In this document: in pieces, positions 3,503 through 13,449 of the stretch | Layout: the number at the start of each line of letters is the position of its first letter | Position numbering within the stretch: the stretch's first letter is position 1 | DNA from: a virus | Lineage: Duplodnaviria; Caudoviricetes | DNA: 64,000 nt | Virus record (IMG/VR): IMGVR_UViG_3300025723_000013 | Strand: one strand, 5' to 3' | Translations under genes and position numbers: made by a program | Notes under the pieces: generated by a model | What the model was told of the DNA's origin: nothing | Databases searched by the model: none | The model's input: only the letters and a program-made list of their open reading frames with translations

Positions 3503-3871
3503 ATGATTAACACCATCAAAGAACTGCTGGGCCACACCTTGATCAATGTAGAGGTAAACTCAGACGGCAACGAAATCTTGTTCACCCGCGAGGATGGAAT
3601 TCGATACCGTATGTATCACAGGCAGGACTGCTGTGAGGATGTGGCCATTGAAGATGTATGTGGTGACTGGCATGATCTCATAGGCAGCCCTTTGTTAGAA
3701 GCCGAAGAAGCCACCAGTGACGATATGCTGAACTGGTTGGAACACATCACTTGGACATTCTACAAATTCGCCACCATCAAGGGCAGTGTGACCATTCGCT
3801 GGCATGGTATCAGTAACGGTTATTACAGCCAGCGGGTGGATTTTGAGTGCTTGGACGAAGTTGAATGTTGA
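3503..3871 (+). CDS. Hypothetical phage protein
   Basis: YHRQDCCEDV.IED..GD; TWTFYK; GISNGYYS. Confidence 0.75.
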   Translation: MINTIKELLGHTLINVEVNSDGNEILFTREDGIRYRMYHRQDCCEDVAIEDVCGDWHDLIGSPLLEAEEATSDDMLNWLEHITWTFYKFATIKGSVTIRWHGISNGYYSQRVDFECLDEVEC

Positions 3872-4086
3872 ACAACATCTTAAAATGGCTTGCTACCAAG
3901 ACTCTGATCATAGGCACGTTGATCAACAGCCTGGGCTATTATCCCCTAGGACCCTTGATTCTGCTGGCCGGTGGGCTGATGTGGCTGATTGTGGCCATAC
4001 GCTGGAGAGAAGCTTCCCTCATAGTGACCAACGGCGTCATGGCTGCGATCAGCACGGCTGGACTGATCTATCACTATTATCATTGA
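3865..4086 (+). CDS. Small membrane protein
   Basis: Three hydrophobic segments. Confidence 0.7.
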   Translation: MLNNILKWLATKTLIIGTLINSLGYYPLGPLILLAGGLMWLIVAIRWREASLIVTNGVMAAISTAGLIYHYYH

Positions 4087-4110
4087 CTGCTGTGTTTGAT
4101 CTGCTATAAT
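4083..4110 (+). promoter_or_regulatory. Sigma70-type early promoter
   Basis: TTGACT-16-TATAAT with TG extension. Confidence 0.7.
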
Positions 4111-4139
4111 ACTCACATACTAGAGCGGAGACGAACACT

Positions 4140-4373
4140 ATGAATTGGAACTTGGAAGGTTTGATTGTGCGTGGTCGCTATCTTGGACAGCATCCGGTGC
4201 AGGGTCACGTGGTGTTGTCACGCACCAAGTACGGAAGTGGCATTGATCATCATGTGGTGTTGGATCATCCACTGGATCTTTTTGGCAGCTGCCGCGATCG
4301 AGTGGTGCTAGCCCATCATCACGTGGATCAGGTGTTGCAGAATCACTCCAAGGAGTGGGTACGTCATGGATAA
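4140..4373 (+). CDS. Hypothetical protein
   Basis: GGAG RBS downstream of promoter. Confidence 0.7.
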   Translation: MNWNLEGLIVRGRYLGQHPVQGHVVLSRTKYGSGIDHHVVLDHPLDLFGSCRDRVVLAHHHVDQVLQNHSKEWVRHG

Positions 4374-4569
4374 AGATCAACAAATCAAACAGCTTCGCGA
4401 ATCACAAATGGTGCTGTATCTCGAAAATGCCACACTCAAAAGCCGTTGCCACGAGATGGAAGAGCGTATCGCTCACTTGGCCCAGGCCTTGGATATTGCC
4501 ATCCAAGCACTAGAAACTGCCAAGGCCACTTTTGAACAGGCCTTGCAGGCCGCTGATCAATCTAGATAA
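4366..4569 (+). CDS. Coiled-coil hypothetical protein
   Basis: Overlaps upstream stop; AAGGAG RBS. Confidence 0.65.
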   Translation: MDKDQQIKQLRESQMVLYLENATLKSRCHEMEERIAHLAQALDIAIQALETAKATFEQALQAADQSR

Positions 4570-4667
4570 AAGCTCACTTTAAACGTTCTGGTAGCGAATC
4601 AGTCAGTTAAGCCAGCAGCCGGCTACATAACCTTATAACGGTCCTAAGGCATGTTCTTTGATGTTTG
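4570..4667. ncRNA. Candidate ncRNA/cis-element containing exact rRNA segments
   Basis: GGTAGCGAA (4590-4598), GCCAGCAGCCG (4611-4621), TATAACGGTCCTAAGG (4634-4649); stems GTAGC/GCTAC and CCTTA/TAAGG; between convergent genes. Confidence 0.5.
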
Positions 4668-5393
4668 TCAGCAGTGCCATTTTCTCAATGATTTATTGAT
4701 ACGACTGTTGGGATCATGAGCTGTCTTGGCTGATGTGCGATGTTTTTTCATGCCCTTCATGCGAGCGCAAAAACTCTTGCGTCGTTTGGAGGCCTTGCTG
4801 CCTTTCTTGAGCTTGCCGGGCTTGGTAGTGACCGCGGTCTGCAATTTGCTGCCGGGATGTTGTCTGCGGTAGCTGGCCACGCCCTTCTTGTTGAGCCCGC
4901 CGTTTTTGTTCTTGCCAGATTTCTTTTGCCATGCCGCAGCTTCATCCAGATGACTGCCTTCACGTGGGGCGAACGCAACATCTGCCACGTCTGCGATTCG
5001 TATGTGTTTCAGACCAGTGGTTCCGTGAGATCTAGCAGCCCAGTATCCTTGATTGTGCAGATGCTGCATCACATAGTAGAGAAATTTGGGATCAATTTTG
5101 TCACCGGCAGTGACCTTGACGCCCATGTATTGAGGCTGATATTGTGTGACTGGTCGGCCCACCTGTTGTTGGCTGCCTTTGCGTATGATCCAAAAGTCCG
5201 CATTGGGCATGTGCGTGGCCACCAAAGCCAAATCACGCAGGTACATGCCCGACGATTCCTTGACACTGCGATTGGGCACACAGTTATTGACTCGCACGCC
5301 GCCCTTGATCTTGGTGCCCTGTTTGTGCATGCCTGACCAGCACTTGGCATCCAATCTGGTTTTAACCTCACCCACGAATTCTTGAGCTCTCAT
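4668..5393 (-). CDS. Modular basic virion-internal-type protein
   Basis: MRAQEFVGE start; modules KCWSG...NNCVP, a central domain, and AAWQKKSGKN...RINKSLRKWHC. Confidence 0.75.
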   Translation of the reverse strand: MRAQEFVGEVKTRLDAKCWSGMHKQGTKIKGGVRVNNCVPNRSVKESSGMYLRDLALVATHMPNADFWIIRKGSQQQVGRPVTQYQPQYMGVKVTAGDKIDPKFLYYVMQHLHNQGYWAARSHGTTGLKHIRIADVADVAFAPREGSHLDEAAAWQKKSGKNKNGGLNKKGVASYRRQHPGSKLQTAVTTKPGKLKKGSKASKRRKSFCARMKGMKKHRTSAKTAHDPNSRINKSLRKWHC

Positions 5394-5587
5394 TTTTTCT
5401 TTCCTCTGCGCATGTTGATCTGCCAGCGGGCCAATTGGCCTTTACGCCCCTTGCTCTTGGCTGCCTTGGTCAATTGAGCCAGGGTGGCATGTTTGGGGAT
5501 ACCCGCACGAGCACTGTCGCCAGGACGACCCGGGCCTTTGCCATCTGCAAAGTTTTCAAACAAGGCCAACAGTTCGCGCAAAGTCAT
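5390..5587 (-). CDS. Small basic late protein
   Basis: TAAATA 5 nt upstream; MTLRELLALFENFADGKGPGRPG. Confidence 0.75.
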   Translation of the reverse strand: MTLRELLALFENFADGKGPGRPGDSARAGIPKHATLAQLTKAAKSKGRKGQLARWQINMRRGKKK

Positions 5588-5606
5588 ACTGATATTTATC
5601 ACTCTG

Positions 5607-6548
5607 TCACTGACCAAACTGAGTGGTGATCACACGACCATGCAGATCTTGTGCATGCAAGGGCAACTGTTCAATCACAAAGGTTCTCTGCAGCCATCGA
5701 TCGTTGCCATCAAAGCGTGGCTGATAGGCACTGCGTCCATGCACTGCCCGCGCATTGTCAATGATCAAGAGATCGCCTGATGTGAGATTGATTTCACTGT
5801 GACACTGAGCCACCGCACGGCCCAGTTCATGTAGGGCCTGATCAGCAGCAGGATCAGTGCCTACCATGAGATCCTCATCAAACACCATGACAGGATCATG
5901 GGGCGTGGTCAATACCGCCATGGGTGGGCCCAACTGATTGGCTCTGCCATTCAAGAAGCTTTGATCTATGGCCGTACGGAATCTGGGTTCAAACAAGATT
6001 CTCTGTGTGGCCCGGCTCAGGTGCGGCCACACCTGATTGATTGAGCACAGCGTGGTCATGGCTCGTTCATCTCCCCTCAAGCACAGCAGGGCCAGATAGG
6101 CCGGACGATAGGGATGAAAGGCCGTTTCGGTATGAAACATGAGTGGCACCAGACTGGATGTGCTGGTTTGGGCATGCTGATTGGCACGAGTTGGCACCAG
6201 ATTCTGCACCAAACGGCCGCCCAATTCAGGTTCATAGCCCACGGGTTCACCCAGCAGGCTGGCCACGGCCAACAGAGTGCGTTCGCTGATCAAATCTTTG
6301 CTAGTGGGCTCAGTGGGTGAGGAGGGAGTTCGCGGCACTGCTCCCACTGGCAAGCCTCGCATCAGCAGCGCACCACTGGGGTGGCTGTGCCTGCGAAACT
6401 GAGCCACTGCGTGAGTGATCTCAGCAGGCAGATGAGCACGCCAGTCCCGAGCCTGGGCCATGAACTGGGCGCTATCCAGTGGCTCCTGCAGGGGCAGCGG
6501 GCCTGGATCCGGTGCTGGGCACGTCAAGGTGAGGGGTGCTAGATGCAT
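5607..6548 (-). CDS. TauD/TfdA-family Fe(II)/2OG dioxygenase, clavaminate-synthase/AsnO/VioC-like
   Basis: FHTETAFHP (HxE), LLCLR, IIDNARAVHGR, DRWLQR; AAGGA RBS. Confidence 0.85.
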   Translation of the reverse strand: MHLAPLTLTCPAPDPGPLPLQEPLDSAQFMAQARDWRAHLPAEITHAVAQFRRHSHPSGALLMRGLPVGAVPRTPSSPTEPTSKDLISERTLLAVASLLGEPVGYEPELGGRLVQNLVPTRANQHAQTSTSSLVPLMFHTETAFHPYRPAYLALLCLRGDERAMTTLCSINQVWPHLSRATQRILFEPRFRTAIDQSFLNGRANQLGPPMAVLTTPHDPVMVFDEDLMVGTDPAADQALHELGRAVAQCHSEINLTSGDLLIIDNARAVHGRSAYQPRFDGNDRWLQRTFVIEQLPLHAQDLHGRVITTQFGQ

Positions 6549-6838: not shown

Positions 6839-7065
6839 AACGCATACGGATCACAGTGGATGAATTCAATCAGTTGGTGGCTCGATATGACCAAACAGTG
6901 GCCGCACAAGAGCCCCTGCTGCAACCCGGGCTGTACACTCGCGGCCTGCTGGGGCACTATGGCATCAAGACGTTCAAATACCTGTCAGCTCTGGGCTTGG
7001 TTCGCTTGGAATTTGTGAGCGAGCCCGCTGCCACTTGGTTTGCGCTGCGACATGTTGGCTCGTGA
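6835..7065 (+). CDS. Hypothetical protein, paralogue of previous gene
   Basis: Ends EPAATWFALRH; shared DNA GCCACTTGGTTTGCGCTG. Confidence 0.65.
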   Translation: MKRIRITVDEFNQLVARYDQTVAAQEPLLQPGLYTRGLLGHYGIKTFKYLSALGLVRLEFVSEPAATWFALRHVGS

Positions 7066-7105
7066 TCAGCACATCAAAAATCTACACACATTAAATAAGT
7101 TCACT

Positions 7106-7702
7106 ATGGATAAACACAGAATAATTCAAGAAATGCATGCTCTTCCGTCGGCCTGGACCGGACATTTGGAATTTGCTCAATGGCTGGTTGATCGTGTGCG
7201 ACCAACCACCACTGTGGATCTGGGTGTGGATTACGGGTTCAGCCTGTTTGCCTTGGCTCTTGGCGGTCAAGGCACTGTGTACGGTGTAGACAGTTTTGAG
7301 GGCGATATTCATGCTGGTTACCATCCTGATGCCTACCGTATGGTAAGCAATTTCCAACAGCGCCATGCCTTTGATCATGTGCAGTTGATACGGTCATGGT
7401 TCACACCCTTGGCCCAAAAATGGCTGCTGCCAATTGACATACTGCACATCGACGGATTGCACACCTATTCGGCCATCACCGAGGATTGGCAAAATTGGTC
7501 AAAATTCGTGCCCGCCACTGGAGTGGTGATCATGCATGATGTGATCAGTTTCCCTGCCGATGTGGGTCGTTTTTACAATGAACTGCCTTTGCCCAAGGCC
7601 TATTTTGAACACAGTGCCGGACTGGGCATCGTGACATGGAATGTGAGATTACTGGAGGACATCTTGAGAGCCTTTCCTCAGGCACGTGTGGGCCCTGTGT
7701 GA
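7106..7702 (+). CDS. Class I SAM-dependent methyltransferase (Methyltransf_24-like)
   Basis: VDLGVDYGFS, YGVDSFEGD, IDILHIDGLHTY, GVVIMHD; TAAATA upstream. Confidence 0.85.
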   Translation: MDKHRIIQEMHALPSAWTGHLEFAQWLVDRVRPTTTVDLGVDYGFSLFALALGGQGTVYGVDSFEGDIHAGYHPDAYRMVSNFQQRHAFDHVQLIRSWFTPLAQKWLLPIDILHIDGLHTYSAITEDWQNWSKFVPATGVVIMHDVISFPADVGRFYNELPLPKAYFEHSAGLGIVTWNVRLLEDILRAFPQARVGPV

Positions 7703-13374: not shown

Positions 13375-13449
13375 GGGATCGTAGCTCAGAGGTAGAGCAA
13401 TCGGCTTTTAACCGATTGGTCGAGAGTTCGAATCTCTCCGGTCCTACCA
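13375..13449 (+). tRNA. tRNA-Lys (UUU) with encoded CCA
   Basis: Acceptor GGGATCG/CGGTCCT, D arm, ATCGG-CTTTTAA-CCGAT, T arm GAGAG-TTCGAAT-CTCTC, ACCA end; promoter TTGACG-17-TACATT at 13245-13273. Confidence 0.95.

Follow-up and report, generated by a model that had tools for sequence, protein, structure and literature searches.

A Structured RNA Family with 23S rRNA-like Words in Uncultured T4-like and Jumbo Phages

A gap between convergent genes in a 64,000-nt stretch of phage DNA (the window) holds a member of an apparently undescribed family of structured RNAs, about 95 nt in length, that is carried by uncultured T4-like and jumbo phages. A first-pass annotation had picked out words resembling ribosomal RNA in this gap, for which conservation in related phages could be sought. 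We found such conservation: the blocks recur in the same order and at the same spacing, and the element is a real feature at the level of RNA. Members were gathered by three pattern scans of IMG/VR, which were pooled, and all totals are lower bounds; they come to more than 220 phage contigs at least, with at least 184 distinct sequences among the matches listed. The most conserved parts of the family are the words that resemble 23S rRNA. With it, the phages that are largest and least understood gain a widespread RNA family whose covariation is solid and which includes a pseudoknot.

Membership and Copy Number of the Family

The window derives from a T4-like myovirus, with genes for a large terminase, a tail sheath, a DnaB-like helicase and a UvsW-like helicase. 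The same sequence, 99.96-100% identical over the region, is present in several lake metagenome assemblies; a 284-kb contig is among them, so the window belongs to a jumbo T4-like phage (genome at least 284 kb). In six other assemblies at this level of identity the element is identical, and these are therefore uninformative on conservation. More distant evidence came from the neighbouring 241-aa gene, whose product has 349 relatives in IMG/VR. Their loci had no intergenic sequence in common with the window, but a search with short words recovered both end blocks, in the same order and with the same spacing, in two of them. The DUF6321 domain of the 241-aa protein is 85-91% identical across many phage contigs, and its N-terminal part is variable.

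A covariance model (R1) matched the window element over the full model length, with a score of 84.8 bits (E = 1.6e-19), whereas the second match in the window (9.3 bits) was noise. By this model the 64-kb window has a single copy, as does each of 100 loci, and jumbo contigs of 138-353 kb have one or two. On a 352,754-bp contig with direct terminal repeats (L121), a strong R1 match at 266272-266371 is accompanied by a weak one of 29.4 bits at 76939-77023 on the minus strand, which may be a diverged second copy. Other carriers encode a DNA polymerase B less than 50% identical to those of Rak2- and Atu_ph07-type jumbo phages.

The element corresponds to no described family in the collections that were searched. 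A match to an unrelated Rfam family would have spoken against the first-pass proposal, but Rfam 15 returned no relevant match at the gathering threshold in the window and none in 12 related loci. The window's only Rfam match at that threshold is a tRNA gene at 13375-13446 on the plus strand (72.7 bits). When E values up to 10 were allowed for region 4300-4900, the only matches were two weak C/D-box hits inside the neighbouring gene. Searching the window region against cultured phages with blastn returned only a 120-nt stretch of S-SM2, again inside the neighbouring gene. Two variants of the element had no match in cultured phages, and R1 found none in five of them (Phosso, Atu_ph07, Vibrio phage 2.275.O, S-SM2 and GAP32). 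The 35 pattern matches in bacterial genomes, of which all but two loci were inspected, yielded no phage-type element: two look like chance matches, and the others inspected were 23S genes, in which the loop of H68 happens to read GGTAGCGAAG. Open-access papers and preprints yielded no description of the RNA family.

Fold, Covariation and the rRNA-like Words

Read on the strand used in the first-pass annotation (plus), the order of the element is (T)GCTCAC-TTT, hairpins P1, P2 and P3, and GTTC; coordinates in the window are given in Table 1. In the model-based alignment (A2), 92.7% of cells were paired compared with 69.8% in shuffles, none of 500 shuffles reaching as high a value, and both sides had changed in 14 of the 15 pairs. 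When the 3' partners were slid by one to three columns, only 24-61% of cells remained paired, and the covariation score, 0.53 in register, fell to 0.10 or less. Alignment A1 gave a similar picture, with 90.1% of cells paired versus 70.9% in shuffles. Single-sequence folds of the window copy, on both strands, were no better than shuffles.

Table 1. Features of the element and its neighbours in the window. Motifs are written as on the plus strand; for the RNA features the minus sign follows the probable strand assignment.
Feature	Position	Strand	Details
Whole structured RNA element, single copy	about 4564..4661	minus (probable)	coordinates as matched on the plus strand
Pseudoknot strand GCT, inside conserved GCTCAC (4572-4577)	4572..4574	minus	pairs with AGC 4617-4619 in the P2 loop
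P1 hairpin	4582..4608	minus	outer AAC 4582-4584/GTT 4606-4608; inner CT 4588-4589/AG 4601-4602
P1 apex	GGT 4590-4592/ATC 4598-4600	minus	closes pentaloop AGCGA 4593-4597; contains block 1 (4590-4598)
P2 hairpin	4610..4624	minus	AGCC/GGCT; 7-nt loop AGCAGCC 4614-4620; contains 16S-like block 4611-4621
P3	4625..4654	minus	ACAT 4625-4628/ATGT 4651-4654; CCTTA 4631-4635/TAAGG 4645-4649
Words within P3	4640-4649 (GGTCCTAAGG)	minus	H69-like TAACCTTATAAC; near-invariant GGTCCTAAGG (block 3)
GTTC (minus strand GAAC), P3 flank	4653..4656	minus	conserved in alignments A1 and A2
241-aa gene, C-terminal DUF6321	4668..5393	minus	stop codon 4668-4670, 18 nt from block 3
Sigma-70-like promoter and two small ORFs (4140-4373, 4366-4569)	4083..4569	plus	converge on the element

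At the base of P1 the sequence varies freely while pairing is kept, the pairs carrying three or four standard pair types. The apex, GGTAGCGAATC, forms a three-pair stem (G.C, G.U and U.A) that closes a pentaloop NNCGA, and it too covaries, from G.C to A.U at positions 1/11 and from U.A to G.C at positions 3/9. The former change is seen in AGTAGCGAATT (19 of 184 members) and the latter in GGGCACGACTC (18 members), counts that apply where the search pattern left the apex free.

P2 has a stem of 4 bp, with 98% of cells paired and all four pairs changed on both sides. Its loop, which is AGCAGCC in 155 of 184 members, enters a pseudoknot with the upstream GCT(CAC), to which it contributes three to six bases; in A2 this helix is 98.7% paired. 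The partners covary, from GCU/AGC to GGU/ACC, GGCUAC/GUAGCC or GCCAC/GUGGC. This bears on the first-pass view of the P2 word as a piece of the 16S 530 loop, which is not supported: AGCAGCC changes to AGCACCC, AGTAGCC or AGTGGCC together with its partner, i.e., GCT to GGT, GGCTAC or GCCAC. Conservation of the word is thus explained by the pseudoknot rather than by 16S rRNA, and its likeness to 16S is probably incidental.

P3 encloses the near-invariant loop word GGTCCTAAGG, present in 170 of 184 members, and in longer members also a hairpin with GTAAC or GCAAC in its loop. Of two stems proposed at first, CCTTA/TAAGG is backed by the compensated variant CCCTA/TAGGG, whereas GTAGC/GCTAC is not conserved, GTAGC sitting in the apex of P1 and GCTAC being the freely varying 3' strand of P2. 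A kissing interaction between the P1 and P3 loops was also considered and rejected, with only three complementary bases and no covariation.

The three rRNA-like words lie exactly where they had been reported (GGTAGCGAA at 4590-4598, GCCAGCAGCCG at 4611-4621 and TAACCTTATAACGGTCCTAAGG at 4628-4649), and they match the bacterial 23S (GGCCGTAACTATAACGGTCCTAAGGTAGCGAAATTCC) and 16S (GTGCCAGCAGCCGCGGTAA) genes retrieved for comparison; the sites are named here by their E. coli numbering (e.g., 23S 1920-1937). The statement that three such exact pieces are unlikely by chance was too strong. An exact 9-mer match anywhere in the rRNA operon occurred in 96% of simulated 98-nt sequences, and an 11-mer match to rRNA is estimated for roughly 1/10 to 1/4 of sequences of that length. 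Because words this short match rRNA so readily by chance, neither the 9-mer nor the 16S 11-mer is significant alone. The 16-mer occurs once in the window, where 0.02 matches would be expected even with up to two mismatches, and the estimated probability of a 16-mer match to the rRNA operon somewhere in 64 kb is about 0.15-0.2. The observation is non-random because the 9-mer exactly continues the 16-mer in rRNA and the blocks keep their order and spacing over more than 220 phage contigs. That the two main conserved blocks of one family should match adjacent rRNA words by chance is very unlikely, with an estimate below about 1e-6.

On the minus strand the loops show 11 nt (P3) and 8-9 nt (P1) of complementarity to the retrieved 23S sequence; as judged from sequence, the invariant minus-strand loops are the complement of 23S 1920-1937. 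Only GGTCCTAAGG is family-wide, the word in P1 being the majority form but dispensable.

Strand and Genomic Context

The working strand is probably minus, i.e., the opposite of the one on which the element was first written. The antisense reading, which the first-pass annotation had put beside a plus-strand one, is the likelier by gene context, by the mismatches in P1 and by the consensus fold score. At 93 of 111 loci the left-hand flanking ORF, and at 101 of 110 the right-hand one, runs opposite to the strand first used (~90%). At the base of P1, A.C mismatches outnumber G.U (41 versus 15) and C.U is far above G.A, both of which favour minus, and the consensus fold is better on minus (-13.9) than on plus (-10.8). 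The pseudoknot strand is directly adjoined by the neighbouring promoter, so that a promoter reading the plus strand could not be accommodated. In favour of plus are the invariant G.U in the P1 apex, with its U.G variants, an excess of G.U over A.C in P3 (30 versus 21) and the single-sequence folds, in which plus had a slight edge in 74 of 110 cases. A near balance between the two kinds of wobble may also indicate that folding is required of both strands.

On the minus-strand reading the upstream gene in the window is the 241-aa gene, and across the family the element keeps a close relation to the gene in this position. In about 70 of 101 loci, 3-13 nt separate block 3 from the upstream stop codon, and for 28 of 44 upstream gene families this distance is no more than 12 nt; GTTC adjoins the stop codon of the neighbouring gene in most loci. 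The upstream genes themselves are variable accessory genes. In certain loci (L178, L209, L216 and similar ones), the upstream gene ends in a G+C-rich, hairpin-forming stretch that encodes ...AALAAAG(K/R)-stop, loosely reminiscent of the tmRNA tag.

Beyond the other end of the element, an A/U-rich, G-poor tract lies 3' of the pseudoknot strand, and a sigma-70-like or late-type promoter occurs within about 90 nt in 54 of 113 loci, compared with 8.5% of background windows. TTGACA-N16-18-TATAAT is present in 30 of 113 loci, with the -35 box at a nearly fixed offset, and a late-type box (ATAAATA) overlaps the end of the element in 31 of 113. Intrinsic terminators, i.e., a G+C-rich hairpin followed by a U run, were found on the gene-sense strand in 3 of 113 loci, which is not above background. 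A DsbA-like gene of 86 aa (77 of 113 loci) and a DNA polymerase B gene (83 of 113) are always downstream on the same strand.

The copy in the window is an exception, with no DsbA-like or polymerase gene within the 64 kb. It sits between convergent genes, with no adjoining promoter and no downstream gene on either strand, and is the only conserved structure between the two convergent units; no terminator-like site was found in window positions 3800-5800. The opposing plus-strand unit starts at a near-consensus sigma-70 promoter (4083-4110; TTGACT-16-TATAAT plus a TG extension, in agreement with the consensus at 11 of 12 positions), and its second ORF stops at 4567-4569, 2 nt ahead of GCTCAC. 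The 77-aa product of the small ORFs has 21 distant relatives in IMG/VR, and the 67-aa, coiled-coil-like product has none. Neighbours of the element's own operon include a TauD/TfdA-family dioxygenase (5607-6548, minus strand) and a class I methyltransferase (Methyltransf_24; 7040-7702, plus strand).

Candidate Functions and Known Systems

We tentatively favour the view that the element, read on the minus strand, is a transcript-boundary module resembling the PeSL cassettes, i.e., intergenic modules of a promoter plus a stem-loop in T4-type phages, also found around gene 43, whose stem-loops terminate or attenuate transcription next to early promoters (PMC2839356). This function is ranked first because the element occupies the place that the stem-loop half has in a PeSL. 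In the window the minus-strand element would be the trailer of the 241-aa gene, with a compact fold directly behind the stop codon; in most relatives the fold also directly precedes the next promoter. It may attenuate or end the upstream message, or stabilise it, and may insulate the unit that follows. Several features sit awkwardly with such a role. There is no G+C-rich hairpin with a U run at the element, the element is single-copy whereas PeSLs are repeated, and part of the strand evidence (the apex G.U, the P3 wobbles and the single-sequence folds) favours plus. Moreover, a stabiliser or terminator needs neither invariant loops of 10-11 nt nor words that match adjacent stretches of 23S rRNA, so that this reading leaves the invariant loops and the complement to 23S 1920-1937 unexplained.

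Those same features are the starting point of the main alternative, which we regard as unlikely, namely that the RNA is directed against 23S rRNA. The words stand outside any rRNA-like secondary structure, so any function they have would run through their sequence, and on the favoured strand this means complementarity to 23S 1920-1937. The minus-strand P3 loop CCUUAGGACCG and the P1 apex AUUCGCUAC would pair with 23S 1920-1930 and 1930-1937, respectively, a site that runs from the 3' strand of H69 through the 5' strand of H70. The candidate target would be free 50S or nascent 23S rRNA, and the stop codon at the base of P3 fits an RNA that tethers or captures subunits released there; alternatively, it might disturb 50S assembly or subunit joining. 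It is doubtful, though conceivable, that a folded RNA in an mRNA trailer of large uncultured phages pairs through its invariant loops with the universally conserved H69-H70 junction, docking on host 50S subunits, or on precursors of these, or disabling them.

Natural antisense RNAs share this layout, in which two loops are complementary to neighbouring stretches of one target, and the low estimate for a chance match of the two main blocks, like the preference for the minus strand, points the same way. The A.C mismatch in the minus-strand P1 apex would leave an effectively open loop of 9 nt. The match also extends differently by subfamily: AAGGTAG in some members makes it 13-14 nt long, and one locus (L314) carries CCGTAAGCTATAACGGTCCTAAGG, which covers 23 rRNA positions with a single insertion, almost a complete H69. 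Set against this, about 10% of members have GGGCACGACTC in P1, which has no rRNA match, and compensation by AAGGTAG is more frequent among them without being universal (8 of 18 members lacking GGTAGCGAA, versus 22 of 159 others). The change from TAAGG to TAGGG breaks complementarity to rRNA and yet is compensated within the element. In the mature 50S these rRNA nucleotides are helical, and a single mRNA trailer could not titrate the ribosomes of a cell. Should the loops indeed pair with 23S rRNA, the element would be the first known natural case of a phage RNA directed at ribosomal RNA itself, and its target would be a site that the host cannot mutate.

Less probable again is a regulatory RNA for the replication module, acting as a protein operator or ligand sensor on read-through into the DsbA-like and DNA polymerase genes; the invariant loops would then be a binding pocket or site, and the likeness to rRNA inherited or incidental. 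The constant downstream position of those genes on the same strand suggests such a link, a pseudoknot combined with invariant loops is characteristic of riboswitches and protein operators, and T4 gp43 and gp32 bind structured operators in their own mRNAs. However, the element and the next gene are usually separated by a promoter, and the majority of downstream transcripts would therefore lack the element. The window copy has neither these genes within 64 kb nor any downstream gene, and no structure that could serve as an alternative expression platform was found.

A decoy on the plus strand, in which the words of the H69/H70 junction and the 530 loop titrate a factor that recognises those rRNA sites, appears improbable. 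It would account for the invariant G.U of the P1 apex, with its covarying flanking pairs and U.G variants; some subfamilies do have an H69-like hairpin in the rRNA register (e.g., ACCGU...ACGGU or CCG-UAAGCUAUAA-CGG), and in the window the early operon on the plus strand runs straight into the element. Yet the secondary structure of the rRNA sites is not reproduced in block 1 or the P2 loop, and the H69-register stem is absent from most members. Block 1 had been taken for a copy of rRNA, but it forms its own small three-pair stem with a pentaloop, unlike H70, and is replaced by GGGCACGACTC in about 10% of members; hence it does not copy rRNA structure. The 530-loop word is a 7-nt loop closed by C.G, and its sequence changes along with that of its pseudoknot partner. 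A plus-strand RNA would be antisense to both neighbours in about 90% of loci, and just upstream of it lies the neighbour's opposite-facing promoter, so that a plus-strand promoter placed to include the pseudoknot strand in the transcript could not fit.

That the element is a chance resemblance in a non-functional spacer is extremely improbable: although 9- to 11-mers match rRNA readily and even a 16-mer in 64 kb is not rare by the estimate above, order, spacing and fold are conserved over hundreds of divergent contigs in which the flanking intergenic sequence is not, and conservation together with covariation excludes such a resemblance.

Other origins were rejected. A group I intron or permuted intron-exon arrangement is at odds with the lack of any Intron_gpI match, the coding flanks and the wrong order of the guide words. 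Hammerhead-type arms, an RNase P external guide, an IS110 bridge RNA and a tRNA-like fold were set aside on word order, size or a missing core or recombinase. Tandem duplication of an rRNA fragment fails in that linkers after block 1 are no more rRNA-like than shuffles (9.1 versus 10.6); those before block 3 are slightly more so (10.7 versus 9.8).

Among known systems, the leaders that bind ribosomal proteins L1, S8, L20 and L10 are likewise short mRNA segments that share sequence with a conserved rRNA site. However, in these leaders the sense strand reproduces the rRNA structure of the site, ahead of the gene that is regulated, whereas the phage words stand in a different secondary structure, probably on the antisense strand, and follow a gene. 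CopA/CopT of plasmid R1 and RNA I/RNA II of ColE1 are also short structured RNAs with complementary words exposed in hairpin loops, two loops addressing adjacent parts of one target. The putative target of the phage element would be an rRNA instead of an mRNA or primer, and the element is not encoded opposite it.

Group I introns inserted at 1930/1931 in the 23S genes of Acidobacteriota begin with TTAGGTTCGCTAGCCTTAG and share two antisense words, TTCGCTA and CCTTAG, with the minus-strand loops of the element. The intron words adjoin each other in reversed order ahead of a catalytic core, whereas the phage element, at about 95 nt, has no intron core, as judged by the absence of an Rfam match. 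Since intron guides use the same two words, this 23S site is a recurrent target of RNA pairing. Insertions directly after CGGTCCTAAGG were seen in 23S genes of Acidobacteriota metagenome-assembled genomes (L329, L331, L338 and L346) and in L357. Four of these insertions begin with TTAGG or TTAAG and contain TCGCTAGCCTTAG, which looks like a group I internal guide for this site; the insert in L357 (Acidimicrobiales) is different and begins with TAGACCGACTCTCACG.

In position the element resembles the PeSLs. Both are intergenic, and both occur in plastic regions that include the neighbourhood of gene 43. A PeSL has a stop codon on its upstream side and, on the other, a strong early promoter of the sigma-70-like kind with an A/T-rich tract; among relatives of the element an adjoining promoter is seen in 30 of 113 loci for the sigma-70-like form and 31 of 113 for the late-type form, but it is absent at the window copy. 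PeSLs are simple GGGG/CCCC hairpins in many copies per genome, whereas the phage element has three hairpins, a covarying pseudoknot and invariant loops of 10-11 nt. If it serves only to mark a boundary, it would be an unusually elaborate and conserved version of the T4-type boundary cassette.
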